Below, one piece after another: positions 4,422-27,062 of a stretch of DNA of 64,000 nt (positions are counted from its first letter, which is position 1; every line of letters begins with the position of its first letter). The notes under the pieces are model-generated. The model was not told the origin of the DNA. It saw only the letters and a list, made by a program, of their open reading frames with translations, and did no database searches. Source of the DNA: Caldilineae bacterium (GTDB taxonomy: Bacteria; Chloroflexota; Anaerolineae; Epilineales; Epilineaceae); NCBI GenBank assembly GCA_020634625.1, contig JACKBJ010000002.1, positions 158,275 through 222,274 of the forward strand, written 5' to 3'. Position numbers and translations under genes: made by a program.

Positions 4422-4594
4422 CCCGACGCTGCATGCCGGCACTCGGCCTCGGGCCCGGACCGGTCGCCCCCGCGGGTCACTTTTGCGTTAATTGTCCACC
4501 ACCGCGTCCACGGCCAGGTAAGAACCTGGACAGAAGCGGCGCCTGACCCCTCGATTGCTGAACAATACCTTCTCACTACCTGAACGGAGGCACC

Positions 4595-7129
4595 ATGAAG
4601 CAACGCTTTGCCCTGATCGGCGCCCTGGCCCTTTTGGTGGCCGTGGCCGCTCCGAGCCCCCGCCTGCTCCAGGCCGACGCGTCCTCGGAGCTGGCACGCC
4701 TGCGCGTCGCGCATGCTTCGCCCGATGCGCCGGCCGTCGACATCCTGGTCGACGACGCGCTCGCCTTCGCCAACATCGACTTCGAGGATCTGACCGACTA
4801 CGCCATCCTGCCCGCCGGCACCCACACCATCAAGGTCGTTCCGACCGGCGCCACCGAGCCGGTGGTGATCGAGGCCGAGCTGACCCTGGCGGCCGAGACC
4901 GACTACACCGTCGCCGCCGCCGGCCTGCTGGCCGAGATCGCGCCGGTGGTCTTCGTCGACGACAACCGGCTGCCCGAGCCGGGCAAGGCGCACCTGCGCT
5001 TCGTCCACCTGTCGCCCGATGCGCCGGCCGTCGACATCGGCGTCAAGGACGGGCCGACGCTCTTCGAGAACGTGGCCTTCCCCGAAGCCGGCGCCTACGT
5101 CCCGGTCGACGCGGGCCGCTACACCCTCGAGGTCAGCCCGAGCGGTATGCCCGTGGTGGCGCTGGAGGTGCCCGACGTCGCGCTCGAGGCGGGTACCGTC
5201 TACACCGTCTTTGCCATGGGCCGCCTGGCGGACATGTCGCTGGAGCCGGTGATCGCTGTCGACGCCACGACGCCGGATCCGGGTCGGGCCCGCGTCCGGG
5301 TCGCGCATGCCTCGCCCGACGCGCCGGCCGTCGACATCCTGGTCGACGACGCGCTGGCCTTCTCGAACGCGTCCTTCGGCGCCATCACCGACTACGCCGA
5401 GCTGCCCGCCGGCACCCACACCATCAAGGTCGTTCCGACCGGCGCCACCGAGCCGGTGGTCATCGAGGCCGAGCTGACCCTGGCGGCCGAGACCGACTAC
5501 ACTGTCGCCGCCGCCGGCCTGCTGGCCGAGATCGCGCCGGTGGTCTTCGTCGACGACAACCGGCTGCCCGAGCCGGGCAAGGCGCACCTGCGCTTCGTCC
5601 ACCTGTCGCCCGATGCGCCGGCGGTCGACATCGGCGTCAAGGACGGGCCGACGCTCTTCGAGAACGTGGCCTTCCCCGAGGCCGGCGCCTACGTCCCGGT
5701 CGACGCGGGCCGCTACACCCTCGAGGTCAGCCCGAGCGGTATGCCCGTGGTGGCGCTGGAGGTGCCCGACGTCGCGCTCGAGGCGGGTACCGTCTACACC
5801 GTCTTTGCCATGGGCCGCCTGGCGGACATGTCGCTGGAGCCGGTGATCGCTGTCGACGCCACGACGCCGGATCCGGGTCGGGCCCGCGTCCGGGTCGCGC
5901 ATGCCTCGCCCGACGCGCCGGCCGTCGACATCCTGGTCGACGACGCGCTGGCCTTCTCGAACGCGGCCTTCGGCGCCATCACCGACTACGCCGAGCTGCC
6001 CGCCGGCACCCACACCATCAAGGTCGTTCCGACCGGCGCCACCGAGCCGGTGGTCATCGAGGCCGAGCTGACCCTGGCGGCCGAGACCGACTACACCGTC
6101 GCCGCCGCCGGCCTGCTGGCCGAGATCGCGCCGGTGGTCTTCGTCGACGACAACCGGCTGCCCGAGCCGGGCAAGGCGCACTTGCGCTTCGTCCACCTCT
6201 CGCCCGATGCGCCGGCGGTCGACATCGGCGTCAAGGACGGCCCGACGCTCTTCGAGAACGTGGCCTTCCCCGAGGCCGGCGCCTACGTCGCGGTCGACGC
6301 GGGCCGCTACACCCTCGAGGTCAGCCCGAGCGGTATGCCCGTGGTGGCGCTGGAGGTGCCCGACGTCGCGCTCGAGGCGGGTACCGTCTACACCGTCTTT
6401 GCCATGGGCCGCCTGGCGGACATGTCGCTGGAGCCGGTGATCGCTGTCGACGCCACGACGCCGGATCCGGGTCGGGCCCGCGTCCGGGTTGCGCATGCCT
6501 CGCCCGACGCGCCGGCCGTCGACATCCTGGTCGACGACGCGCTGGCCTTCTCGAACGCGGCCTTCGGCGCCATCACCGACTACGCCGAGCTGCCCGCCGG
6601 CACCCACACCATCAAGGTCGTTCCGACCGGCGCCGCCGAGCCGGTGGTCATCGAGGCCGAGCTGACCCTGGCGGCCGAGACCGACTACACCGTCGCCGCC
6701 GCCGGCCTGCTGGCCGAGATCGCTCCGCTGGTCCTGGTGGACGACAACCGCCAGCCGGCAGCCGGCCAGGCGCATGTACGCTTCGTGCACGCCTCGCCCG
6801 ATGCCCCGGCGGTGGACATCGCCGTCGCCGACGGCGGCCCGGTCCTCTTCGCGAACATCGCCTTCGGCGAGGTCGGCGCCTATCTGCCGGTCGGCGCGAA
6901 CCGCTACGACCTGGAGGTGCGCCTGGCCGGCACCGACACGGTTGCCCTGACGGTGCCCGGCCTGAAGCTGGAGGCGGGCAAGGTCTACACCGTCTTCGCC
7001 ATGGGGCTCGCCGGCGGCGAGCCCAGCCTGCGCGCCGTCGCGACCGTCGACGCCAGCTACCCCGACCTCACGCCACCGACGCCCGACGTCAACACGATCT
7101 ACCTGCCGGCCCTCATGAAGTCGTACTGA
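4595..7129 (+). CDS. Secreted repeat protein built from eight or more DUF4397-like modules
   Basis: There is an RBS (ggagg) 5 nt upstream of the ATG and a signal peptide (MKQRFALIGALALLVAVAAP). The motif R[VL]xVAHASPDAPAVDI alternating with LRFVHLSPDAPAVDIGV recurs throughout. The gene is followed by a strong hairpin. Confidence 0.75.
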   Translation: MKQRFALIGALALLVAVAAPSPRLLQADASSELARLRVAHASPDAPAVDILVDDALAFANIDFEDLTDYAILPAGTHTIKVVPTGATEPVVIEAELTLAAETDYTVAAAGLLAEIAPVVFVDDNRLPEPGKAHLRFVHLSPDAPAVDIGVKDGPTLFENVAFPEAGAYVPVDAGRYTLEVSPSGMPVVALEVPDVALEAGTVYTVFAMGRLADMSLEPVIAVDATTPDPGRARVRVAHASPDAPAVDILVDDALAFSNASFGAITDYAELPAGTHTIKVVPTGATEPVVIEAELTLAAETDYTVAAAGLLAEIAPVVFVDDNRLPEPGKAHLRFVHLSPDAPAVDIGVKDGPTLFENVAFPEAGAYVPVDAGRYTLEVSPSGMPVVALEVPDVALEAGTVYTVFAMGRLADMSLEPVIAVDATTPDPGRARVRVAHASPDAPAVDILVDDALAFSNAAFGAITDYAELPAGTHTIKVVPTGATEPVVIEAELTLAAETDYTVAAAGLLAEIAPVVFVDDNRLPEPGKAHLRFVHLSPDAPAVDIGVKDGPTLFENVAFPEAGAYVAVDAGRYTLEVSPSGMPVVALEVPDVALEAGTVYTVFAMGRLADMSLEPVIAVDATTPDPGRARVRVAHASPDAPAVDILVDDALAFSNAAFGAITDYAELPAGTHTIKVVPTGAAEPVVIEAELTLAAETDYTVAAAGLLAEIAPLVLVDDNRQPAAGQAHVRFVHASPDAPAVDIAVADGGPVLFANIAFGEVGAYLPVGANRYDLEVRLAGTDTVALTVPGLKLEAGKVYTVFAMGLAGGEPSLRAVATVDASYPDLTPPTPDVNTIYLPALMKSY
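4690..6730. repeat. Tandem direct repeat, 594-bp unit, about 3.4 copies, nearly identical at the nucleotide level, inside the DUF4397-like gene
   Basis: Identical shadow ORFs recur at 5019, 5613 and 6207 on the plus strand and at 5200, 5794 and 6388 on the minus strand, giving a period of 594. The protein copies differ by only one or two residues (NASFGA versus NAAFGA, YVPVD versus YVAVD). The first and last copies are more diverged. Confidence 0.85.
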
Positions 7130-7539: not shown

Positions 7540-8874
7540 TCACGGCGCCGCCTCCGCCGCCGCCTCCGCCATGATCAAGTACAGCCCCTGCCCATACGGC
7601 TTGATCGCATCGAACGGCACCTGGCCGTAAACCTCGATCGAAGGCGCCACCCCGGTACCCGTCGACACCCGCGTCAGCGTCCCGTCCTCGGCCACCAGCG
7701 CGTCCACCGCCCGGGCCGCCGTCAACCCGACCGATCGCAGCCGCCCATCGACCCAGCCGGCCTCGCTCGCGCGCAGCATCGCCGCCGCGATCGCCGCGCT
7801 GCCGGAGCTCTCTTCGTAGAAATCGTTGCGCGTCACGACCGTATGCCACAACCCGGACCGCGCCTGAAGCACCGCCAGCCCGGTCAGCTGCCGCTCCAGG
7901 CGCGCCCGCAGCTGGGCCTGCCAATAGCCGTCCTCCGGCAGCCAGCGCAGCGCCTCCGTCGTCGCCAGCGCCGCCCAGCCGTTGCCGCGGGCCCACTGCG
8001 CCGCCGACAGATGCGGCTGCAGCCCGGCCCGGAAGTCCGACAGGTCCCAGCCGTGGAACCAGCGCCCGCTGGCCGGATCCTGAAGCCGTCGCGCGTGCGC
8101 CAACAGCTCGTCGACCGCCAGGCTCAGACAGCTGGCGCAGCCCTGCTGGGCGCCGTAGCGCGCCAGGAGCGGCACGCTCACGATCAGCGTGTCGTCCCAG
8201 AGCTGGTCGTCATAGTGGGCCAGCGTGCCGTGGACCCGCGGCGCTCGGTTCATCAGGTAGTCCACCGATCGGCGGGCGACCGCCAGGTAGCGTGGGTCCG
8301 GGCGCAGCTCGTAGAGCATGAGCGCCGCCCAGGCCGGCGTCGCCTGGTTTGGATGCGACAGGACCGGATCCGTCACCAGACGGGCGTCGAACCAGGCCGC
8401 CACCGCATCGAGCAGCGCCGGGTCCTCGGTCTGCCGGTAGGCCTGCATCAGGCCGGCCATGGCCACGCCGGCCTCCCAGTCCCAGACGTTGATCGCCGCG
8501 TCGGGCGCCTCGGTCATCGCCAGCGTGCGCGCCGCCACCCGCAGGCTGCGCTCGCGGGCGGCCGATTGGTCGATGACGCCGACCGCCGCCGGAGCTGGCG
8601 CGGCGCCCGAGGCTCCCGCGGCCTGCGCCGCTTCCGTCGGCCCCGCCGCGCGGGACGGAATCGTCGTGGCGGCGCCCGCCGCAGCCGCCACGACCCGCAC
8701 GCTCGGGATCTCCAGGGCCGCCCGCGGGGCGAGCGGCCGGCTCGAACCGGCCAGCGGCAGCGCCCCGAGCAAAAACGCCACGAGCGGCGGCACCGCGAGT
8801 CGAAGGGCATGCCGGTCGCGGCATCCGCCGGCAACCTGGCGTCTCGCGTCCCGATCGGCTCTCGGATCGTGCAT
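7540..8874 (-). CDS. Glycoside hydrolase family 88/105 (unsaturated glucuronyl / rhamnogalacturonyl hydrolase, YteR-like), secreted
   Basis: Family motifs are present: VWDWEAGVAMAGLMQAY, DDTLIVSVPLLARYG and RGNGWAALATTEAL. The protein has an N-terminal hydrophobic signal region. Confidence 0.7.
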   Translation of the reverse strand: MHDPRADRDARRQVAGGCRDRHALRLAVPPLVAFLLGALPLAGSSRPLAPRAALEIPSVRVVAAAAGAATTIPSRAAGPTEAAQAAGASGAAPAPAAVGVIDQSAARERSLRVAARTLAMTEAPDAAINVWDWEAGVAMAGLMQAYRQTEDPALLDAVAAWFDARLVTDPVLSHPNQATPAWAALMLYELRPDPRYLAVARRSVDYLMNRAPRVHGTLAHYDDQLWDDTLIVSVPLLARYGAQQGCASCLSLAVDELLAHARRLQDPASGRWFHGWDLSDFRAGLQPHLSAAQWARGNGWAALATTEALRWLPEDGYWQAQLRARLERQLTGLAVLQARSGLWHTVVTRNDFYEESSGSAAIAAAMLRASEAGWVDGRLRSVGLTAARAVDALVAEDGTLTRVSTGTGVAPSIEVYGQVPFDAIKPYGQGLYLIMAEAAAEAAP

Positions 8875-8968
8875 GGCCCAACTTTACAGGAAGCGGGACT
8901 GAACGGCCCCGCGCGAGCCGGTTGGAGACATGACGCAGGACCGCGAGGCTGGCTTGCAGTGGCGCCAT

Positions 8969-9013
8969 GCAAACGAGCAGCCCACGCGCCGAAGCGGTGG
9001 GCTGCTCGTTTGC
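8969..9013. terminator. 17-bp perfect-stem hairpin immediately 3' of tRNA-Ala (GCAAACGAGCAGCCCAC / GTGGGCTGCTCGTTTGC)
   Basis: Perfect inverted repeat with an 11-nt loop. It lies 10 nt downstream of the tRNA 3' end on the minus strand. Confidence 0.6.
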
Positions 9014-9023
9014 GAGGCATCAG

Positions 9024-9096
<73 letters not shown>

Positions 9097-9107
9097 GGAA
9101 GACCGAT

Positions 9108-9113
9108 ATTATA
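9108..9113 (-). promoter_or_regulatory. -10 element (TATAAT) for tRNA-Ala
   Basis: The minus strand reads cctataatatcggtcttcc followed by the tRNA +1. Confidence 0.5.
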
Positions 9114-9185
9114 GGACGGTGCCGCCGGCGAGGTCAACCATGACGCAGGGCTTCGGTCGGTCGCCGCTCGGCGCCTGGCTGCCGC

Positions 9186-9545
9186 TCACGCCAGGCGCTG
9201 GATGATCTGCAGCGCGTTCCCGTCCGGGTCGGTGAAGCTGCCGAAGACGGCGTTGGGGGTGCGGTTCTCGAAGCTGAACGCGACGCCGCGGGTCTCGAGC
9301 TCGGCCTTGGCCGCGGCGTAGTCGGCCACGCCCAGCACCGGGGTCGCGCCGAAGCGCCGGCCCTCCGGCCCGGCTTCGACCCCTTCGCCGCCGTGCAGCG
9401 ACAGCGTCAGGTTCCCGGCGCCGAGCACCGCGAAGTCGCCATGCTGGAAGCGCGGCTCCAGGCCGAGCACGTCGTGATACCAGGCGACGCTGCGGGCGAC
9501 GTCCGAAGACCAGAGCATGATCGAATCGACGTTCTGGATCTGCAT
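9186..9545 (-). CDS. Glyoxalase/bleomycin-resistance/VOC-family protein (119 aa)
   Basis: It occupies the C-terminal frame of the 771-aa track ORF and begins at MQIQNVDSIMLWSSDVARSVAWYHDVLGLE. The size and the pattern of His/Glu ligands are typical of VOC proteins. Confidence 0.65.
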   Translation of the reverse strand: MQIQNVDSIMLWSSDVARSVAWYHDVLGLEPRFQHGDFAVLGAGNLTLSLHGGEGVEAGPEGRRFGATPVLGVADYAAAKAELETRGVAFSFENRTPNAVFGSFTDPDGNALQIIQRLA

Positions 9546-9634
9546 GGAAGGGCTCCTGGAAAGGGTGATGGCGCCGCGTCGAGCGGGGTCGAGCGGGCGG
9601 TCGAGGGGGCGGGCGGGTCCATCGGCAGGGCAGG

Positions 9635-10153
9635 CTACCAGTCGCCGGCGTAGCCCGGGTCGTAGGGCGCCGCGTGCTCGCCCAGCCAGTGATGCTGCAG
9701 CTCGGTCAGCTGTCGGATGTGCAGGAGGTCGTGCTCCAGCCAGGCGTGCAGCAGGCTGCCGGCCGACATCGCGCCGAAGACCGGATGCACGTTCTCGGCC
9801 GACCAATCCGGTGCCGCGAGCCGGCGGAGCCAGGCGAGCGACCGGTCCCGCTCGGCGCTGAAACGGGCCAGCGCCTCGTCCAGGTCCTGCTCGGCATAGG
9901 CCCGATCCCGCACCCAGCCCTGCGGGTCGATCGACGGCCAGGCGGTGCCCGGCTGGTGCAGGGTCAGGTCGAGCCGGGTGCGGAAGTCCTCGACCTCCTC
10001 GTCGGCCAGGTGGCAGACCACCTCCAGGAGCGACCAGGCCTCGGGTGCCGGCCGCCAGCCGGCCTGCTCGGCCGAGACCCCGTCGACCAGGCCGCGGATC
10101 ACGATCCGATTCGCTTCGAGCCGGGCCAGGGCTTGGTCCTTCGCGATCGCCAT
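9635..10153 (-). CDS. DinB-family (DinB_2 / YfiT-like) putative metal-dependent protein
   Basis: Histidine-containing blocks are present: HLADEEVEDFRTRLD and HAWLEHDLLHIRQL. The length is 172 aa. Confidence 0.65.
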   Translation of the reverse strand: MAIAKDQALARLEANRIVIRGLVDGVSAEQAGWRPAPEAWSLLEVVCHLADEEVEDFRTRLDLTLHQPGTAWPSIDPQGWVRDRAYAEQDLDEALARFSAERDRSLAWLRRLAAPDWSAENVHPVFGAMSAGSLLHAWLEHDLLHIRQLTELQHHWLGEHAAPYDPGYAGDW

Positions 10154-10267
10154 GGGTATCGATGCTCCTTGATTCCGTGCGTTCGATTCGCTCCGGCGCG
10201 CGTGAGCATGATCGTCGCGCGCGGGATGGGGCGTGATCCGGTCCGTTGACTCGGGCGCTTCCCGGGC

Positions 10268-11578
10268 TCAGTCGGTCCAGTAGACCGCCCAGCTGTCCTC
10301 GGGCAGGGTCCAGCCGAGGGTGCCGCGGGCGCTGCCATCCAGGGCATGCACCACCAGGCGGGTCCAGCCCGGGCTGAAGCTGTCGTCGGTCTCGCCGACC
10401 AGGAGGTAGCGCCCGTCGGGCGAGAAGGCCAGCGGCGCCGCGTCCTGGCCCGTGATCGGCAGGCGCTGCGTGGCGCCGGCCGCTTCGACGTCGGCCCAGC
10501 CGATGCCCAGCGCGATCGGCGCGCCGTCCGCGCCGGTCGGGAGCGGCGCCTGGGTCCAGGCCGCTCGCTTCCCCGCCGCGTCCCAGAGCAGGCGCCGTGC
10601 CTGGCTGCCCTCGTCCAGCGCCAGGTCCGACTGTCGGCCGGCCGCAAGGTCGATCCGGTGCAGGTGGGCCTCGGACTCGCCGGCCTCGGCCAGCAGCAGC
10701 AGGCGGCCGCTCGGCGCGGTCCGGGCTTCGGCCCAGGTCTGGGTTCCGGCGCGCGTCTCCAGCTCGGCCAGCCGGTCCCCGGAGCGGGTGTCGATCAGCT
10801 GGACGCCGGCCAGCATGCCGCTGTCGGCCGCCTGTTCCAACAGCGCCGCGCGTCCGCTCTCGGGGTCCCAGGCCAAGAGCGAGAGCGGCCGACCGGGCGA
10901 GACCGCCTGGCTCTGCCAGAGCACGCGCTCGTCCACCGTCGGGCCGGCATCGCCACCGACCGCGACGGCGTGCAGCGCCCAGACCGCGGGCCGCGCGGCC
11001 AACGCCGGCTCCTGGCCGGGCAGGCCGCCGGTTTGCCGTCCGTAGGCCAGGCTGCTGCCATCGGGCGACCAGGCGAAGCCGACCAGGCGTGCCAGCGCGG
11101 TGTCGGCGCTGGCGACGATGCGCGGTCTGGCCTCGGGCGTCAGGTCCTGGACCACCAGCTGCTCGTCGGCGATGGCCGGCTCGCCCGGGGCCCGCTGGAT
11201 AGCGCGATAGGCCACCTGGTCGCGCTTGGGCGAGAGGGTCCAGTCGGAGATGTTGGCCCCGTCGGTGGTGACCCACAGCGTCTCGCGTCGGCCATCGACC
11301 AGGCCGAAGCGGTTGGCGCGGTTGGAGACGCCGGCCGGCGAGGCCGTCAGCGCCACCAGCGCGCCGGCAAGGGTTGATGGATCGAGCGCGGCGGCCGGCG
11401 CGGCCGGGGCCGCGGCATCCGAGGGCCCGGCGCCGGTCGCGGCCTGGCTCGCGCTGCGGTCGGTCTCGGGCCCGGGCGGCGGCGTCGAGCCCTCGCGACA
11501 CGCGGCGATCGACCCGCCCAGGATCAGCGCGGCAAGAAACGGCAGCCGGCGGCTTCGGATGGCGCGCAAGGCTGGCAT
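10268..11578 (-). CDS. Lipoprotein with TolB/PD40-like beta-propeller repeats
   Basis: The lipobox signal is LILGGSIAAC. PD40-like repeats are WSPDGSSLAY and FSPDGRYLLV. Confidence 0.6.
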   Translation of the reverse strand: MPALRAIRSRRLPFLAALILGGSIAACREGSTPPPGPETDRSASQAATGAGPSDAAAPAAPAAALDPSTLAGALVALTASPAGVSNRANRFGLVDGRRETLWVTTDGANISDWTLSPKRDQVAYRAIQRAPGEPAIADEQLVVQDLTPEARPRIVASADTALARLVGFAWSPDGSSLAYGRQTGGLPGQEPALAARPAVWALHAVAVGGDAGPTVDERVLWQSQAVSPGRPLSLLAWDPESGRAALLEQAADSGMLAGVQLIDTRSGDRLAELETRAGTQTWAEARTAPSGRLLLLAEAGESEAHLHRIDLAAGRQSDLALDEGSQARRLLWDAAGKRAAWTQAPLPTGADGAPIALGIGWADVEAAGATQRLPITGQDAAPLAFSPDGRYLLVGETDDSFSPGWTRLVVHALDGSARGTLGWTLPEDSWAVYWTD

Positions 11579-11744
11579 GGCATCACCTCCACATGGGTGC
11601 CGATACCCGATTATAGGCCGCCCGGCGTCGCTGGCATCGCTTCCAGGCCCGGTTTATACTCAGCGTGGCGGGCTCCGGGGTCCGGCGGGCCCCGCCTGTG
11701 CGCCCAACCGATCTCAACCATCCGGCCTGGAGCTCGTCGCGGTC

Positions 11745-12829
11745 ATGCCCCAGCCTCCGCCTCCGCCGCGCCTCGTCGTCTTCGGGCTGAGCCTGGCCCT
11801 CGGGCTCTGGCCGGCTGCCTGCCAGGGGCCGAGCCCCACGCCGGAGCCCATCGAGGCGGGGCCGATCGCGCTGGTCGCCCCACCCGGCGCGCTGCCCGAG
11901 GCGCTGCTGGACGGGTTCACGCGCGCCACCGGCATCTCGGTCGCGCTGCGCGAGTCGGTCGAGGTCGAAGCCCTGCTGCGCGCCGGCGAGCCGATCGATC
12001 TGGCCCTGCTGCCCACCGAGGCCCTGCCCGGCCTGATCGAGGACGGTCTGCTGGCGCCCATCGACCACAGCCGCCTGCCGGGCTTCCGGCGCGTGCCCTA
12101 CAGCTTTCGCGACCTGGCCTACGACCCGGGCAATCGCTACTCGGTGCCGCTGCGCTACGGCATCTCGGGGCTGATCCTGCGCCTCGGAGCGGTCGAGGCC
12201 TTCCCCCGCAGCTGGGCCGAGCTCCTGTCCCCCGGCCCGGGCGGGCGGCTGATCCTGCCCCGACGCCCACGCGAGGTGATCGGCGCGGCCCTGCTGGCCG
12301 GCGGACACGACGCCAACGCCGAGGATCCCGCGGCCCTGGCGGCGGCGCTGGAGCGCTGGCGGGCTCTGGGCCCGCGGCGCTTGCAGGTCCTCTCCCCCGG
12401 CGAGTCGGGCGCCGAGGCGCTGGCCCGGCCCGGGGCGGCCGGTCTGATCGGCCGCGCGGCCGACCTGTCGGCCGCCCGCGCGGCCGGCCTGGATGTCAGC
12501 TTCGTCGTGCCGGTCGAGGGTGGGCTGCTGTGGATCGAGCACCTGGTGCTGCCGGAGGCCGGAACCCGGCCGGCGAGCGCCCTGCGACTGGTCGAGCACC
12601 TGCTGCGGCCGGACGTGGCGGCCGAGCTGGCCCGATCCGGCTCGGTGGCGCTGGCCAACACGGCCTTGCCCGACGCGCTGGCGCCGGACCTGCTGGCCGA
12701 CCGCGCGGTCTGGCCGGAGCTGCGGGTCCTGCGCCGATCGGGCATGCTGCTGCCCCTGAGCCCCGCTGGCCGCGCCCTCCACGCCTCGATCTGGGAGCAG
12801 CTGTTGGCGCTCTTGGGCGGAGCCGGCTC

Positions 12830-12833
<4 letters not shown>
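11745..12833 (+). CDS. ABC-type periplasmic substrate-binding protein, PotD/PotF (polyamine) family
   Basis: A signal-peptide-like N-terminus precedes a PotD-like block (IDLALLPTEALPGLIEDGLLAPIDHSRLPGF). The true ATG at 11745 was chosen over the long N-terminal extension in the track. A TATACT -10 lies upstream. Confidence 0.65.
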
Positions 12834-14677
<1,844 letters not shown>

Positions 14678-18767: not shown

Positions 18768-18922
18768 GGGCGCAATCCTAGGCCGGCGGGCCGATGGGTC
18801 AAGCCCCGGCTGCCGCCCGGCCGGGACCGATCGGGCGCGCGATTGACCGCCGGCCGTACGCGTTGCAGGATTGAGGCCCCCGCGCGCGCTGCTTCCGCGC
18901 GCGACCGAGCCAGGAGGTACCG

Positions 18923-19864
18923 GTGCACCATCCATCCGACCCGTCGTCCGGGCTCGCTCGCCGCCAGGGTCCCGCCGGCCGTCCAGGCCCGACCGAGCCC
19001 TCCGGTCCGCCCGGCCGCTTCGGCGCCCTTGGCCGGCTGACGTTGTTGGGGCTCCTGCTTCTGGCCGGCTGTCGCGGCGATCCGGCCGCCGCGCCGTTCG
19101 TCGATCTGGCCGACGCCGACTTCGAGGTCGGCGTGACCCCGCTGCCGCTGCGGGTCGAGGTCCTGGCCAGCCATCCGCACGATCCGTCGGCCTTCACCCA
19201 GGGCCTGATCGACTACGGCGGCAAGCTCTACGAGAGCACCGGGCTCAACGGCCGTTCCAGCCTGCGCCGGGTGGACATCGAGACTGGCGCCGTCGAGCTG
19301 CAGGTGCCGGTCGACGAGGCCTACTTCGCCGAGGGGCTGGAGCGGGTGGACCAGCGCCTGATCCAGCTGACCTGGCAGTCCGGCAAGGCCTTCGTCTACG
19401 ATCTGGACAGCTTCGAGCTGCTGGCCGAGCTCGACTACGCGACGGAGGGCTGGGGCCTGTGCCTGGCCGAGGCCGCCGGGCACCTGGTGATGAGCGACGG
19501 CAGCGACCAGCTCTACTTCCGCGACCCGGAGACCTTCGCGGAGCTGGGCCGGGTCGCGGTCACGCGGGCCGGCCAGCCGCAGACCATGCTCAACGAGCTG
19601 GAGTGCGTCGGCCAGGTGGTCTACGCCAACGTTTGGCAGACCGACGAGATCGTGGTCATCGACCCCGATACGGGCGCCATCGGAGCGGTCATCGACACCG
19701 CGGCCCCCGGCTCCGACCCGCTGTTGACGCCGGAGGAGCGCGCCTCGGCCGACGTCCTCAACGGCATCGTCTGGCTGGAGGACGCCGACCGCTTCCTGAT
19801 CACCGGCAAGCTCTGGCCGAGGCTCTTCGAGGTCGGATTCCAGCCGGCGGAGCCAGGCGGATGA
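18923..19864 (+). CDS. Glutaminyl-peptide cyclotransferase (plant/bacterial five-blade propeller type), lipoprotein
   Basis: The protein is collinear with Xanthomonas-type QC: SHPHDPSAFTQGL...YESTGLNGRSSLRRVDIETG...NELECVGQVVYANVWQTDEIVVIDPDTG...DVLNGIV...ITGKLWPRLFEV. The lipobox is LLLAGC. Confidence 0.85.
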   Translation: MHHPSDPSSGLARRQGPAGRPGPTEPSGPPGRFGALGRLTLLGLLLLAGCRGDPAAAPFVDLADADFEVGVTPLPLRVEVLASHPHDPSAFTQGLIDYGGKLYESTGLNGRSSLRRVDIETGAVELQVPVDEAYFAEGLERVDQRLIQLTWQSGKAFVYDLDSFELLAELDYATEGWGLCLAEAAGHLVMSDGSDQLYFRDPETFAELGRVAVTRAGQPQTMLNELECVGQVVYANVWQTDEIVVIDPDTGAIGAVIDTAAPGSDPLLTPEERASADVLNGIVWLEDADRFLITGKLWPRLFEVGFQPAEPGG

Positions 19865-21660
19865 GCCGGCACCGCTCGAGCCCTTCGGCCCCGCCCGCCG
19901 CCCGCCGCCCGCTCGTCGTGCCGAGCCGGCCCCGCCGACCCGCCGCGGCCCTGCTCGCCGGCCTGCAGGGCGGCCTGGCCGCGCTGGCCCTGCTGGCCGG
20001 GCCAGCGCCGCCGGCGACCCGCGCCCAGCCGGGGGTCGAGCGCCTGAAGCTGGAGCTGCTGGCCGAGCACCCGCACGACCCGCTGGCGCATACCCAAGGC
20101 CTGCTGTTCCACGATGGCCGGCTCTACGAGAGCGAGGGCAAGGACTACGCGCCCTTCGGCGCCGGCCAGCCCGACTACCGCTCCTCGCTGCGTCAGGTCG
20201 ACCCGAGCAGCGGCGAGGTCCTGCGCCGGGTCGACCGCAGCGACTACTGGGCCGAGGGCCTGGCACGGGTCGACAGGCGCCTGGTGCAGATCAGCTACCT
20301 GGCGCGCCGGGCCACCTTCTACGACCTCGACAGCTTCGCGGAGCTGGCTGGGGTCGACTACGAGGTCGAGGAGGGCTGGGGCCTCTGCCACGACGCGCCC
20401 CGTGATCGCCTGCTGATGAGCGACGGCTCGAGCCGGCTCTACCTGCGCGACCCGCGGAGCTTCGCGCCGCTCGGCAGCCTGACGGTGACCCTGGCGGGTC
20501 GCCCGCTGGCCAAGCTCAACGAGCTGGAGTGCGTCGGCGACCGCGTCTACGCCAACCTCTTCCCCGACATCGGGCGCCCCGACCTCTACGACACCATCGC
20601 GCGCATCGATGCCCGGACCGGGGTCGTCGACGGGCTGATCGACGCCGGCGGCCTGCTGAGCGCCGCCGAGATGGCCGAGTTCGGCGTGGCCGAGCTCAAC
20701 GGCATCGCGGCCGATCCGGAGCGCCAGGTCTTCTACCTCACCGGCAAGCTCTGGCCCAAGCTCTTCGAGGTGCGCCTGGTGCCCGACGATTCGCGCGGGA
20801 CGGTCACGCCCGAGCTCTCGCCCTCGCCGGAGCCCAGCGCCAGCCCCTCGAGCGGCCCCAGCGCCACGCCGACGGCCGCGCCCACCCGGCCCCCGGCGCC
20901 GCCCGAACGGCTGCGCGTGCAGGTGCTCGAGCGCCTGCCCCACGATTCGACCATCTACACCCAGGGCCTGCTGCTCCACGAAGGCATCCTCTACGAGACC
21001 TCGGGTCACCCGTCGGCGGCCACCGGCGGCCCGGTGCGGCTCTCCGCGCTGCGGGCGCTGGTGCCCGAGACGGGCGAGCAGCTGCGCATCACCGAGCTCG
21101 ACGACCGCTATTACGGCGAAGGCCTGGCCTTGCTGGCCGACCGGCTCTTCTGGATCACCTGGCAGGACGGCCTGGCCTTCGAGTTCGATCGCGACAGCTT
21201 CGAGCGCCTGGAGGTGCACAGCTATGCCGGCGAGGGCTGGGGCCTCTGCTCGGACGGCCACGACTTGTTCATGAGCGACGGCTCGGCCCGCATCACCCGC
21301 CGCGATCCCGAGGACTTCAGCGTCCTGGGTCAGGTCGAGGTGCGCGACATGGGCCAGCCGGTAGCCCGGCTCAACGAGCTCGAATGCGTGGACGACCAGG
21401 TCTACGCCAACGTCTGGAAGACCGACGAGATCCTGCGCATCGACCGCCGCAGCGGCAACGTGCTGGCTCGGATCGACGCCAGCGGCCTTCGGCCGGCCAG
21501 CGCCACCAACCGCGAGGCCGTGCTCAACGGCATCGCCTGGGATGCGGCCAGCCAGACCTTCCTGATCACCGGCAAGTGGTGGGACCTGATGTACCGCGTC
21601 CGCTTCGTGCCCGCGTCCGCCGCGCCGATCTATCTGCCGCTGCTGCGGCAGGGTGGCTGA
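19861..21660 (+). CDS. Tandem double glutaminyl cyclase: two QC propeller domains joined by a Pro/Ser linker
   Basis: Both QC domains are complete (HPHDPLAHTQGLL...NELECVGDRVYANLF...GKLWPKLFEV and LPHDSTIYTQGLL...NELECVDDQVYANVW...GKWWDLMYRV). The ATG overlaps the upstream stop (ATGA). Confidence 0.85.
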   Translation: MSRHRSSPSAPPAARRPLVVPSRPRRPAAALLAGLQGGLAALALLAGPAPPATRAQPGVERLKLELLAEHPHDPLAHTQGLLFHDGRLYESEGKDYAPFGAGQPDYRSSLRQVDPSSGEVLRRVDRSDYWAEGLARVDRRLVQISYLARRATFYDLDSFAELAGVDYEVEEGWGLCHDAPRDRLLMSDGSSRLYLRDPRSFAPLGSLTVTLAGRPLAKLNELECVGDRVYANLFPDIGRPDLYDTIARIDARTGVVDGLIDAGGLLSAAEMAEFGVAELNGIAADPERQVFYLTGKLWPKLFEVRLVPDDSRGTVTPELSPSPEPSASPSSGPSATPTAAPTRPPAPPERLRVQVLERLPHDSTIYTQGLLLHEGILYETSGHPSAATGGPVRLSALRALVPETGEQLRITELDDRYYGEGLALLADRLFWITWQDGLAFEFDRDSFERLEVHSYAGEGWGLCSDGHDLFMSDGSARITRRDPEDFSVLGQVEVRDMGQPVARLNELECVDDQVYANVWKTDEILRIDRRSGNVLARIDASGLRPASATNREAVLNGIAWDAASQTFLITGKWWDLMYRVRFVPASAAPIYLPLLRQGG

Positions 21661-21665
21661 GCCGC

Positions 21666-22286
21666 ATGGCCTGGATCGAGACCGTTCCACCGCGTGACGC
21701 GACCGGACGCTTGGGGCGCATCTACGCCCAGGCCATCGCCCGGGCCGGGAAGGTCTTCCAGATCCTGCAGATCCAGAGCCCGAACCCGGCCGTGCTCCAG
21801 GGCAGCATGCAGCTCTACACCGCCAGCATGATGGGCGCGTCGCCCCTCTCGCGGGCCGAACGCGAGGCGCTGGCCACCACCGTCAGCCGCCTCAACGCCT
21901 GCCACTACTGAACCCAGGCCCATGCGGCGGACTTCCGGTCGGAGGTCGAGGCGGAGATCGCTGCCGGCACCTGGCCCGGCCCCGGCGACGTCGGGGCGAT
22001 GGTCGACGCCTTGATCCACGACGATGCGCGCGTCGCCTGGTCGCCCCGTCTGCGCGCCCTGCTCGACTATGCCGCGACGCTGACGCGCCGCCCCGCCAGC
22101 GTCGATTCCGCCGATCTCGACGCGCTGCGCGCCCAGGGCCTCGGCGACCGCGCCATCCACGACGCGGCCCAGGTCATCGCCTACTTCAACTACATCAACC
22201 GCGTCGCCGACGGCCTGGGCGTCGATCTCGAGCCGGACATGCCGCCTCGGCCGCTGCATTCCCAGGTCGCGCCGCAGGAGCCCTAG
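21666..22286 (+). CDS. AhpD/carboxymuconolactone-decarboxylase-family 'peroxidase-related' protein with an in-frame TGA (selenocysteine candidate, CxxU), or a nonsense-disrupted pseudogene
   Basis: The two track ORFs (ending 21911, starting 21999) share one frame with no other stop between them. The TGA at 21909-21911 falls exactly where the second Cys of the family motif belongs (VSRLNACHY-U-TQAHAA versus the family VSxxNGCxYCxxxH). A hairpin with a GGUC loop lies 19-37 nt downstream. Confidence 0.5.
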
Positions 22287-22288
22287 CC

Positions 22289-23149
22289 ATGAGCCGCGCC
22301 GATGGTCTTGCCTCAGCCGAGCCATTCCGCATCTCGCCGATCCGCGCCGGCCTGGGCGCCCGCATCGAGGGCCTCGACCTTTCGGCCCCGCTGGATGAGA
22401 CGACCTTCGAGGCCATCCGGCGCGCCTTCTTCGAGCACCACATTCTGGCCATTCCCGGCCAGGACATCTCCGCCGCCGACCTGGTTCGCTTCAGCAAGCG
22501 CTTCGGTGAGCTCGAGCCGCACCTGCTCGACCAGTTCCACCATCCCGACTTTCCCGAGATCCTGATGCTCTCCACCGTGGTCGAGGACGGTCGGCCGCTG
22601 GGCTTCGCCACCCCGCCCGACCCGGCCTTCCACTCCGACCTCTCCTACCGACCCCTACCCAGCCGCGTCACCCTCCTCTACGCGCTGGAGGTGCCGACCG
22701 ACGGTAGCGGCGACACCCGCTTCATCGACACCGTGGCGGCCTACGAGGCCCTGCCTGCCGAGATCCAGAGATCGATCGGCCATCTCCGGGCGGTCCACAA
22801 CTACGCCTACCGCTACGGCGACCGTCTGACGCCCGAGCAGTTGGCCAGGACCGAGGATGTCGTGCACCCCGTCGTGCGCCGCATCCCCGAGACGGGCCAG
22901 CGGTCGCTCTTCGTGAACCCCAGCTTCACCGGGCGCATCGAGGATCTGCCGGAGCGGGCCAGCCAGAACCTCCTAAGCCAACTCTTCGAGCATTGCGAGC
23001 AGGAGCGTTTCGGTCTGACCTACGCCTGGACCGCCGGCGACCTCGTCTTCTGGGACAACGCGGCCACGATGCACGCCGCGACGGCGCTGCCGGAGGGGGC
23101 GCGGCGAACCTTGATGCGGACGACGGTGATCGGAGAGGTTCCGATCTGA
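22289..23149 (+). CDS. TauD/TfdA-family Fe(II)/2-oxoglutarate-dependent dioxygenase
   Basis: Family-typical blocks are HSDLSYRPLPSRVTLLYALEVP, GDTRFID and DLVFWDNAATMHAA. The ATG lies 2 nt after the upstream stop. Confidence 0.85.
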   Translation: MSRADGLASAEPFRISPIRAGLGARIEGLDLSAPLDETTFEAIRRAFFEHHILAIPGQDISAADLVRFSKRFGELEPHLLDQFHHPDFPEILMLSTVVEDGRPLGFATPPDPAFHSDLSYRPLPSRVTLLYALEVPTDGSGDTRFIDTVAAYEALPAEIQRSIGHLRAVHNYAYRYGDRLTPEQLARTEDVVHPVVRRIPETGQRSLFVNPSFTGRIEDLPERASQNLLSQLFEHCEQERFGLTYAWTAGDLVFWDNAATMHAATALPEGARRTLMRTTVIGEVPI

Positions 23150-23534: not shown

Positions 23535-24758
23535 CTAGGACTCCACCACCGCCATCGCCGCCTCGCGTAGCGCAGCTGCCCGGTCGGTCCGCTCCCAGGG
23601 CAGGTCCAGGTCGTCGCGGCCGAAGTGCCCGTAGGCCGCCGTCTGGCGGAAGATCGGCCGGCGCAGCTTCAGGTCGCGGATGATGGCGCCCGGCCGCAGG
23701 TCGAAGTGCGCCTGCACCAGCTCGCGGATGCGCTCGGGGTCGATCGTCTCGGTGCCGAAGGTGTCGATGTTCAGCGAGAGCGGCTCGGCCACGCCGATGG
23801 CGTAGGCCAGCTGGATCTCGACCCGCGTGCAGAGCCCGGCCGCGACCAGGTTCTTGGCCACCCAGCGCGCCGCGTAGGCGCCCGAGCGGTCGACCTTGGT
23901 GGCGTCCTTGCCGCTGAAGGCCCCGCCGCCGTGGCTGGCCATGCCGCCATAGGTGTCGACGATGATCTTGCGGCCGGTCAGGCCGCAGTCGCCCTGAGGG
24001 CCGCCGATGACGAAGCGCCCGGTCGGGTTGGTCAGGATGCGCGTCTCGGCGTCCATCAGCTCGGCCGGCATGACCGGCTTGATCACGTGCTCGATCAGGT
24101 CGCGGCGAATCTGCTCCTGGCTCGCGTCCGGGTCGTGCTGGGTCGAGATGAGCACGGTCGTGACGCGCTTGGGCTTGCCGTAGGCGTACTCGACCGAGAC
24201 CTGGCTCTTGCCGTCCGGGCGCAGGTACTTCAGGGTCGAGTTCTTGCGCACGTAGGCCAGCCGGCGGGTCAGCTGGTGCGCCAGGTGGATCGGCAGCGGC
24301 ATCAGCTCGTCGGTCTCGTCGCAGGCGAAGCCGATCATCATGCCCTGGTCGCCGGCGCCGATGGCCTCGACCTCGGCGTCGCTCATCGCGCCTTCCTTGT
24401 GCTCCAGCGCCTCGTCGACGCCCATCGCGATGTCGGCCGACTGCTTGTTGATGGCCGTGATCACGCCGCAGGTGTCGGCTGCGATGCCGTAGGCGGCGTC
24501 GGTATAGCCCGTGGCGCGGATGGCGTCGCGGATCACCTGCGGGTAGTCGACCGTCGCGCTGGTGGTGATCTCGCCGGTGACCAGGGCCAGGCCGGTGGTC
24601 ACCACCGTCTCGCAGGCCACCCGGCCGCGCGGGTCCTGCTCCAGAATGGCGTCCAGGATGGCGTCCGAGATCTGGTCGCAGAGCTTGTCCGGGTGGCCCT
24701 CGGTCACCGATTCGCTGGTGAACAGGAATCGGGGCGAGGACATGAACGAGGTCGTCAT
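23535..24758 (-). CDS. metK: S-adenosylmethionine synthetase
   Basis: [34 protein letters not shown] and the full MAT signature. An alternative start is the ATG 15 nt downstream (MSSPRF). Confidence 0.95.
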
Positions 24759-24760
24759 CG

Positions 24761-25768
24761 TCAGGCTCCTTGATGCCGGCCGGCATGGCGGCCATGCTGG
24801 TGCGCGCGGTTCAGGGCGTCCACGAGCGCGTCGGGGATGTCGCCGAAGTGCTCGGCATAGCGCTTGGTGAAGCTGGGGATGGTGTAGCGGTGGGCCTGGG
24901 TCCCCAGCGATTCCAGGGCGTAGGTGGCGGCCAGCGCGCCGGCGCGGCCGGCCACCGGCCAGGGCAGACCGTGCAGCAGCCCGAACATGATGCCCGAGCG
25001 GTAGGCGTCGCCGATGCCGGTGGGATCGACCTGGCGCGTGGCGGGCACGGCCGGGATGACGTGCGTCTCACCGCCGGCGCGGATCACCGAGCCCTTCTCG
25101 CCGTGGGTGATCACCACCACGTCGGTCATGCCGACGATGGCATCCTCGGTCAGGCCGGTCTTCTCGTGCACCAGCTCGAACTCGTACTCGTTGGCCACGA
25201 AGCAGGTGCAGCCCTCGATGCCGGCCACCAGCGCCTCGCCCGACAGCCGCACGATCTGCTGGCTGGGGTCGTAGACGTAGGGGATCTCGAGGTCCCGGCA
25301 CTCCTGGACGTACTTGACCATCGCCTCGGGCGCGTTGGGCGCGATCACGGCCAGCTCGATCGAGGCCGCGTCGAGGTCGTGGAAGGACAGCTGCGTGGCC
25401 GAACCCATCGCGCCGACGTAGAAGCTGGCGATCTGGCGGTTCTTGCGGTCGGTCGAGACGAAGAAGCTCGAGGTGCTCTCGTCCGGCAGGACCCGGGTCA
25501 GGGACATGTCCACGCCGTGCTGCTCGAGGCGCTCGTGGTCGTAGGCGAAGTCGGCGCCGACGGTGGCCATGACGTGCGGGCATTCGCCGAGCAGGGCCAG
25601 GTTGTAGGCGATGTTGGCCGCGCAGCCGCCCGGCTCGCGACGCAGGCTGTCGACCAGGAAGCTGACCGAGAGCACGTCGATCTTGTCGGGCAGGATGTGC
25701 TCGCTGAAATCGCCCGGAAAGGACATGATGTAGTCGTAGGCGACCGATCCGGTGATGATGATGCGCAT
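24761..25768 (-). CDS. PfkB-family carbohydrate/nucleoside kinase (adenosine kinase, or 5-deoxyribose / methylthioribose-type kinase)
   Basis: Ribokinase fold motifs are present: the GG motif ([16 protein letters not shown]) and the anion-hole [12 protein letters not shown]. It is sandwiched between mtnA and metK in one operon. Confidence 0.75.
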
Positions 25769-25792
25769 GGCGTTGCTCCTGGGTCGCTGGGG

Positions 25793-26878
25793 CTAGGACG
25801 CGGGCACCGGGCTGGCGGCGGCCTCGACCGCCGCGCGCAGGCCGGCTTCGAAGGGTGGGCGCAGCACGCCTGCCTCGGTCACGATGGCGCTGATGTAGCG
25901 GGCCGGCGTCAGGTCGAAGGCCGGGTTGGCGGCCGTGACCCCGGCCGGCGGGATGCGCCGACCGGCGATCTCGGTGACCTCGGTCGGGTCGCGCAGCTCG
26001 ATCGGGATTTCGGCGCCGCTGGGGCAGCCCAGGTCGATGGTCGAGCTCGGGGCGACGACGTACACCGGCACGCCGTTCTCGCGGGCGACCACGGCCAGCG
26101 GATAGGTGCCGACCTTGTTGGCCACGTCGCCGTTGGCCGCGATCCGATCGGCGCCGACCAGCACGGCGTCGACCTCGCCCCGCTGCAGATAGTAGCCGGC
26201 CGCTCCGTCGACGATCAGGGTCTGCGGCACGCCCAGCCGCGCCAGCTCCCAGGTGGTCAGCCGCGCGCCCTGCAAGCGCGGCCGCGTCTCGTCCACCAGG
26301 ACCCGGATTCGCTTGCCCTGCTCGTGCGCGGCCCGGATCACGCCCAGGGCGGTGCCGTAGTCGACCGTGGCCAGCGCGCCGGTGTTGCAGTGGTGGATCA
26401 CGGTGCAGCGCTCGGGCAGGAGCGCCGCGCCATGGGCGCCCATGCGCCGGTTGGTGGCCAGGTCCTCGTCGGCGATGCGCTCGGCCTCGGCCAGCGCCAG
26501 CGTGCGCAGGGCGGTCGGCTCGGTCTCGCCGGCCGCGATCTCGGCGTCGAGTCGACCGAGCACGCGGCGCAGGGCCCAGGCCAGGTTGGAGGCGGTCGGC
26601 CGGGCCGCCAGGAGCGTCTCGGCGTCGATGGCCAGATCGGCGCGCAGGCCGGCGGCCGTCGACGCCGTCGACCCCTGGGCACCGAGGGCCAGGCCGTAGG
26701 CCGCCGTGGCGCCGATGGCCGGGGCGCCGCGCACGGCCATGTCGCGGATGGCCTCGGCCAGACTGGCCACGTCGTCCAGGACCAGCGTCGACTCCCGCTC
26801 GGGGAGCAGGCGCTGGTCGATCATGCAGACGCGCGCGTCGCGCCAATAGACGGTTCGTGTCGGGCTCATCGCCTTCAT
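25793..26878 (-). CDS. mtnA: Methylthioribose-1-phosphate isomerase family (MtnA/DrdI, eIF-2B-like)
   Basis: [19 protein letters not shown] and [15 protein letters not shown]. The start was set to the ATG (MKAMSPT) because the TTG at 26911 would overlap the riboswitch terminator. Confidence 0.85.
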
Positions 26879-26900
26879 CGCATGCCTGCCCTGCCGTGGC

Positions 26901-26941
26901 ACCAAAAACAAACGACGTCTCGCCGCAGGCGCAGAGACGTC
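26901..26941 (-). terminator. Intrinsic terminator forming the riboswitch expression platform
   Basis: The minus strand reads GACGUCUC-ugcgccugcggc-GAGACGUC followed by GUUUGUUUUUGG. Confidence 0.7.
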
Positions 26942-26950
26942 GGGGAGAAC

Positions 26951-27062
26951 CTCTCATCTCTCGATCCGCGCTGTCGCGCGAGCCGGCGGACTTGGCACCG
27001 TGGCCTTGGCCTGGTTGCCGGGGTTTCGTCGGGCCGTTCCCTCCACCCCTCTCGATAAGATC
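26951..27062 (-). promoter_or_regulatory. SAM-I (S-box) riboswitch aptamer
   Basis: The minus strand reads UCUUAUCGAGAGGGGUGGAGGGAACGGCCCGACGAAACCCCGGCAACCAGGCC...GGUGCCAAGUCCGCC...GAUCGAGAGAUGAGAGG. This matches the S-box consensus blocks (UCUUAUCaAGAG, GGAGGGA, GGCCCgAUGAA, GCAACC, GGUGCnAAnUCC, closing AGAUGAGAG). The P1 helix is UCUUAUC/GAUGAGA. Confidence 0.85.

Follow-up and report, generated by a model that had tools for sequence, protein, structure and literature searches.

The window, i.e., the whole 64-kb stretch of Caldilineae DNA analysed here, carries on its forward strand a gene at positions 21666–22286 that contains an in-frame TGA. The gene comprises 206 codons, of which 81 are sense codons upstream of the UGA (codon 82) and 124 are sense codons downstream of it, followed by a TAG. 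Its translation begins at the ATG at 21666 with MAWIETVPP, runs to VSRLNACHY immediately before the TGA at 21909–21911, and continues through TQAHAADFRSEV and, further on, YFNYINRVADGLGVDLEPDM to the TAG at 22284–22286. A first-pass annotation of this DNA had pointed out the in-frame TGA in VSRLNACHY*TQAHAADFRSEV and the frame that stays open to the TAG, both of which are seen in the translation, but its lengths for the two parts (82 and 125) are each one too high by our count of sense codons. The start MAWI agrees with the ortholog consensus, and AGGGUGG at 21650–21656 (+ strand), 9 nt 5′ of the ATG, is a possible Shine–Dalgarno sequence as read from the letters. The terminator of the gene is TAG, whereas most of the genes checked in the window (15 of 23) stop at TGA.

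The gene is tightly flanked on both sides. Upstream lies a glutamine cyclotransferase paralog (PF05096; 20671–21660, + strand), which is called in the identical loci L001 and L003 and whose TGA stop is 5 nt 5′ of the ATG at 21666. Downstream lies a TauD/TfdA-family dioxygenase (22289–23149, + strand), named as such by NCBI and matched by Pfam TauD with 215.6 bits, whose ATG is 2 nt 3′ of the TAG. These short distances suggest that the gene is probably co-transcribed with both neighbours. When the ORFs within 4.5 kb of the orthologous genes were clustered, no conserved operon partner emerged; any neighbour recurred in at most 10 of the 82 loci, as lineage synteny only, and thus the gene context gives no clue to the substrate. 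The upstream neighbour is itself the second of two tandem PF05096 paralogs (18875–19864 and 20671–21660, + strand), with ~800 bp between them.

With Cys substituted for the Sec/stop position, as in all of the family scoring, the window protein matches the TIGR01926 model ("peroxidase-related enzyme") with 120.3 bits against a cutoff of 81.8, residues 3–190 aligning to profile positions 2–177 of 178. The Pfam CMD match (36 bits, residues 41–91) is at the superfamily level only. Proteins of known structure also align across the TGA, over query residues 13–190 and with E values from 3e-20 to 3e-12, namely the Cys-containing "uncharacterized peroxidase-related proteins" 2PFX, 3C1L (Mlr4105), 2OYO and 2PRR and the AhpD 6K40. 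Their N-x-C-x-Y-C-x-x-A-H aligns with NACHYUTQAH of the window protein, and all of them have Cys where the window has UGA. It is highly likely that 21666–22286 is one gene, encoding an AhpD-like (TIGR01926, COG2128) thiol/selenol oxidoreductase of ~205–206 residues with the motif C79-H-Y-U82.

The active-site helix-turn-helix segment with its proton-relay residues is encoded at 21864–21923 (+ strand), with E67 at 21864–21866, C79 at 21900–21902, Y81 at 21906–21908, U82 at 21909–21911 and H86 at 21921–21923. The sequence reads E67-x11-C79-H-Y81-U82-x3-H86, which matches the relay signature E-x11-C-x-x-[C/U]-x3-H and bears out the earlier placement of the TGA at the second Cys of the AhpD family signature. 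The alignments show little or no variation at R66, E67, C79, Y81 and H86. The proton relays of Pseudomonas aeruginosa PA0269 (Glu36/Cys48/Tyr50/Cys51/His55) and of Mycobacterium tuberculosis AhpD (Glu118/Cys130/His132/Cys133/His137) have been described (PMC3141380), and the spacing of E67, C79, Y81, U82 and H86 is identical to both. PA0269 (2O4D) shares with the window protein the spacing and the third-position Tyr, with weak overall similarity (E 5e-3), whereas M. tuberculosis AhpD has His at the position of Tyr81 and carries its motif near the C-terminus of a larger fold (PMC3141380).

Three neighbouring classes were considered for this protein and rejected. Canonical AhpD, the AhpC adaptor, is represented by TIGR00778, against which the window protein scores 25.0 bits, below the cutoff of 27.8, and none of the 33 scanned window ORFs matches peroxiredoxin. 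A gamma-carboxymuconolactone decarboxylase (PcaC) is disfavoured by the superfamily-level nature of the CMD match and by the presence of the CxxU relay, and no pca genes were seen nearby by Pfam; CMD enzymes are without a CxxC/CxxU relay (PMC3141380). The NF041238 family (AhpD_rel_CFYUT) has a related domain with a C-x-Y-U-T motif, which in the window is CHYUT. However, NF041238 describes a longer two-domain (seleno)protein, the "hypothetical protein 1" of the Sargasso Sea survey, and the window protein reaches only 74.3 bits against its cutoff of 175, over positions 151–339 of the 357-position model.

The UGA at 21909–21911 (+ strand), which is read here as selenocysteine (U82) in place of the second Cys of CxxC, was then compared with the corresponding codon in other genomes. 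The ortholog scan used one genome per GTDB species and gave 514 relatives, from which the best 80 (45–59% identity) were kept; together with one further MAG (L004) and the window these make 82 distinct orthologs. All 82, i.e., the best 80 of the 514 relatives plus L004 and the window, have TGA at the U82 codon, across about six phyla, so the alignment that had been proposed as a check returns TGA rather than TGC throughout. The taxa of the best 80, as named in their records, include Planctomycetota (Phycisphaerae), Acidobacteriota, Gemmatimonadota, Chloroflexota, Actinomycetota (Gaiellales/Thermoleophilia) and others. The choice of orthologs was not biased toward TGA, since tblastn counts a stop as a mismatch. 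More distant homologs, at 35–45% identity, have CxYC at this site, and 79 Cys-type genes collected from metagenomes have TGC (61 genes) or TGT (18 genes) at the codon. Thus, one whole subclade of TIGR01926 has UGA in every case examined, which covers at least 80 GTDB species and about six phyla.

Some further relatives show other changes in this protein. In L167/L168 (P0006) the Sec codon has become AGA (Arg) by one base, and in L170 (P0014) it has become GGA (Gly) by one base, in each case with the downstream hairpin intact; the AGA form occurs in two assemblies. A recent loss of Sec or an error in sequencing may account for these homologs. Four relatives (P0056, P0058, P0068 and P0120) have a C-terminal rubredoxin-like zinc-ribbon extension (CPRC...CxxC; PF21349/PF23458), which might be a built-in electron-transfer module, and a GNAT acetyltransferase domain is fused to the relatives P0087 and P0099.

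A bacterial SECIS-type hairpin lies within the coding sequence downstream of the UGA, at 21930–21947 (+ strand). It consists of a 5′ arm GACUUCC (21930–21936), an apical loop GGUC (21937–21940) and a 3′ arm GGAGGUC (21941–21947). This is the 7-bp hairpin with a GGUC loop of the first-pass annotation, and it is present in both the MFE and the centroid folds of 21900–21980. The hairpin alone has a folding energy of −8.9 kcal/mol. However, the 81-nt region 21900–21980 folds no better than shuffled sequences (z = 0.58), so that the single-sequence fold is weak evidence, and the support has to come from the comparison across genomes. An Rfam search of 21880–22000 with permissive settings returned only a chance miRNA match (E = 3.4) and thus no usable model for the hairpin.

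[quoted passage not shown] The hairpin at 21930–21947 agrees with this model on all four criteria, with a 4-nt loop starting with GG, a 7-bp stem, a spacing of 25 nt and −8.9 kcal/mol, which answers the earlier call for a SECIS prediction. The same test, in a simple perfect-stem implementation, is passed by 69 of 82 Sec-type genes versus 2 of 79 Cys-type genes, a gap that is explained in part by the lower GC of the Cys set. The hairpin also resembles the fdhF-type SECIS of Escherichia coli, in which a stem-loop with a small G-G/U loop stands right downstream of the UGA within the ORF, although a bulged U or an extended lower stem is not evident in the window. GGUC is also the loop sequence of fdhF.

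The pairing itself is retained in the orthologs. When columns are counted from the T of the TGA, the helix (termed H1) pairs columns 22–28 with columns 33–39, and across 62 orthologs 87% of the cells are paired, versus 32–48% when the 3′ partners are slid by 1–3 columns. Compensatory CG→UA changes are found at two H1 pairs (in 6 and 2 sequences), e.g., GAU...AUC in L010, L018, L059, L072 and L073, and RNAalifold returned the core of the H1 helix as its only consensus structure. The covariation is nevertheless modest, as most pairs are invariant and the arms also encode a conserved peptide, D-[LF]-R-x-E-[VI]. The Cys-type genes of TIGR01926, in the metagenome sample, are without both the downstream hairpin and this peptide.

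Codon choice is the test least confounded by this protein conservation. CTC is almost the only codon for Leu90 (74 of 76 sequences; 0.2 bit), while the codon entropy at six other conserved Leu columns is 1.9–2.1 bits, with CTG preferred. At Arg91, 78 of 81 sequences have CGT or CGG, unlike the other conserved Arg columns, in each of which CGC predominates. The start of the loop behaves in the same manner: at least 90% of the orthologs have G in column 29, and in 78 of 81 sequences G or T stands in column 30, the second loop position, which is the last base of the Arg91 codon. The hairpin thus freezes synonymous sites, and what had been set out as a check, i.e., a hairpin conserved among orthologs, is borne out by the retained pairing, by some compensatory changes and by the constrained synonymous positions.

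The orthologs do not all place the hairpin in the same register. The H1 register, at columns 22–39 after the UGA, is found in Planctomycetota, Chloroflexota, Gemmatimonadota and the window. Seventeen sequences without H1, mostly from Acidobacteriota, carry a second helix (H2), CACGGrGA-GGA-UCUCCGUG, in which columns 13–20 pair with columns 24–31; this helix has 8 bp, begins 9 nt after the UGA, is 93% paired and is nearly invariant, including its third codon positions. Its members are L021, L025, L034, L036, L040, L041, L045, L053–L056, L061, L062, L066–L068 and L078, and also L169. It is conceivable, at somewhat less than even chances, that H1 and H2 are mutually exclusive SECIS registers, that the element has moved at least once without loss of Sec, and that the RNA, not the function of the enzyme, imposes the peptide D-[LF]-R-x-E-[VI]. 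If this is true, the AhpD-like family would show a natural case of a SECIS that has changed its place inside a reading frame.

The machinery for selenocysteine insertion was searched for in the window and around the orthologs. Neither ARAGORN nor Rfam found a tRNA-Sec in the 64-kb window, and none was found in the regions flanking the gene at 60 ortholog loci. The window also gave no selA, selB or selD, by Pfam on 33 ORFs or by tblastn with E. coli SelA, SelB and SelD, the only tblastn match there being a weak SelB match on the EF-G gene. These searches agree with the earlier statement that the insertion factors are not in the window. However, selB and selA stand directly beside the orthologous UGA gene in two other loci, at 7567–10877 (− strand) of L074, a Thermoleophilia MAG, and at 10640–13699 (− strand) of L080, a Gaiella MAG, with 32–45% identity to the E. 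coli proteins. In those lineages, the family is therefore physically tied to the Sec machinery. When the window was scanned for in-frame TGAs flanked on either side by coding-like GC3, no convincing selenoprotein candidate besides 21909 emerged, and nothing specific on selenocysteine in Caldilineae was found in the literature.

Public records of this locus and of its relatives reflect the UGA in two ways. The locus is annotated as two short ORFs of 81 aa and 91–95 aa that bear no selenoprotein label, and the NCBI label for the 81-aa fragment is "hypothetical protein". Similarly, the closest matches in protein searches (55–60% identity) are fragments of 113–176 aa that start exactly one residue past the TGA position (M[LQHK]AH..DFRSEV). 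Splitting at the UGA thus causes one conserved redox enzyme to be counted as two hypothetical fragments. Most of the full-length metagenome matches (collection entries P0001–P0018), by comparison, show a W at the UGA position. The DNA of P0001 has TGA there, and its translation with table 11 does not give the stored protein, showing that the W is a gene-caller artefact; the callers presumably translated P0001 with a code in which TGA is Trp, e.g., table 4. As a result, the public collection has both full-length entries with a false CxYW motif and entries cut off at that same site.

Taken with the TIGR01926 score (120 bits vs. 81.8), the conserved TGA, the conserved hairpin and the identical copies of the gene in other assemblies support the selenocysteine reading of the first-pass annotation, and the TGA at 21909–21911 very probably does encode selenocysteine, in an AhpD-like active site. 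Four other explanations of the TGA have to be weighed against this reading.

The one that survives best, though it is quite improbable, is that the UGA is recoded to something other than Sec, either to Cys by a tRNA-Sec-like tRNA(Cys) with a UCA anticodon or to Trp or Gly by near-cognate read-through or an altered code. tRNA-Sec-like tRNAs with other identities have reportedly been described in bacteria, and some metagenome callers print W at the site. That W is, however, the artefact described above for P0001, and an altered code is at odds with the use of TGA as the usual terminator in the window: it ends 15 of 23 Pfam-supported genes, including both neighbours of the selenoprotein gene, so that the genetic code in the window is standard. 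A tRNA of another identity would also leave aside that the hairpin fits the SelB-type SECIS model and that selA adjoins two of the orthologs (L074 and L080).

A slightly less probable explanation is a split gene, in which the ribosome terminates at the UGA, re-initiation yields the C-terminal part and the two polypeptides assemble. A start codon (ATG or GTG) directly follows the TGA in 16 of the 82 orthologs, e.g., as TGAATG in L004, and gene callers do report C-terminal ORFs. In the other 66 orthologs, however, the first in-frame start is 5–85 codons downstream with no preferred position, and in the window it is 30 codons past the TGA, beyond His86. Such scattered starts argue against re-initiation. 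Moreover, such a split would interrupt the catalytic helix between C79 and H86, a helix that runs unbroken in every homolog of known structure.

The first-pass annotation had itself named the two remaining alternatives. One of them, that the gene is a pseudogene in which an ordinary Cys-type AhpD-like gene has suffered a TGC-to-TGA nonsense mutation, draws on the single base that separates the two codons and on the two short hypothetical ORFs of the public annotation, and it is very improbable. The same TGA is present in all 82 orthologs of about six phyla, and the conserved hairpin is specific to the TGA-bearing clade. Moreover, the codon-position entropies downstream of the TGA (0.80/0.73/1.41 bits) match those upstream (0.88/0.71/1.41 bits), indicating that both halves are under equal protein-level selection, i.e., purifying selection is equal on either side of the TGA and the downstream frame is not neutral. 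The other, a sequencing or assembly error producing the A at 21911, has in its favour only the prior that MAGs contain errors and is ruled out for practical purposes, because three further assemblies, from different runs, carry the 621-bp gene with its TGA letter for letter (Logan SRR23924736 and SRR14234133, and NCBI GCA_020434045.1), the exact 81-aa truncated product is called on 19 contigs, and the TGA is common to all 82 orthologs.

SelB/SECIS-dependent insertion of Sec at U82 is thus the mechanism that the evidence from these sequences best supports. According to this mechanism, a ribosome arriving at the UGA at 21909–21911 would have the hairpin at 21930–21947 positioned 25 nt downstream and in frame, and the G-G apical loop would bring in the SelB-GTP-Sec-tRNA(Sec) complex, by which Sec would be inserted and termination avoided. 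After Sec insertion, translation would run on to the TAG at 22284–22286. We infer both the actual insertion of Sec in the source organism and the interaction of the candidate SECIS with SelB.

In the folded protein, U82 would be placed with C79, Y81, H86 and E67 in the proton-relay arrangement of AhpD. By analogy with the AhpD relay, the selenolate of U82 would be the reactive nucleophile, and C79 would be the resolving thiol that clears the intermediate as a selenenyl-sulfide. The putative substrate attacked by the selenolate would be a peroxide, or an oxidised partner protein or disulfide.

AhpD-like proteins (COG2128, CxxU) were introduced as a new selenoprotein family with 27 sequences in the Sargasso Sea survey (Zhang, Fomenko & Gladyshev 2005; PMC1088965). 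In the subsequent GOS survey, AhpD-like 1 was the fourth most numerous selenoprotein family, with 299 sequences (PMC2398784), so that the earlier description of AhpD-like proteins as a known bacterial selenoprotein family holds, but the qualification "rare" does not. A 2026 review lists TIGR01926 as a CxxU selenoprotein family (PMC13188914). By every testable criterion of membership, the window gene belongs to this family: it shares TIGR01926, the CxxU motif with Sec in the second position, and a downstream bSECIS with G in the loop. Nothing essential is different, apart from the origin of the window copy, which comes from a Caldilineae MAG of 72% GC as compared with the marine surveys. The window gene is thus an unannotated member of a selenoprotein family that has been well known since 2005.

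The comparison across genomes takes the AhpD-like family beyond its original marine surveys, and the UGA subclade offers a clean dataset on how an RNA signal constrains the choice of in-frame codons. What is known of selenocysteine decoding and of AhpD chemistry is unchanged, and a specialist would not be surprised. The practical value lies in annotation repair, as the gene is split at the UGA in the record of the Caldilineae MAG and is split there or has its UGA rendered as Trp in many metagenome calls of its relatives.

Other features of the window were noted in the course of the analysis. Rfam at the gathering threshold returned, for the whole window, only a SAM riboswitch and a tRNA-Ala. 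The riboswitch (26951–27061, − strand, 77 bits) heads a string of minus-strand genes at 23535–26953, which consists of an IF-2B-family (MtnA-like) isomerase (25793–26953), a PfkB-family kinase (24761–25792) and the SAM synthetase gene metK (23535–25067), all given as stop-to-stop ORFs on the − strand. This string looks like a SAM-regulated operon for methionine salvage and SAM synthesis. At 4562–7129 (+ strand), an 855-aa ORF is built of eight DUF4397 domains (683 bits); it includes near-identical DNA repeats with a period of 594 bp, so that one peptide context is met again at 5250, 5844 and 6438.
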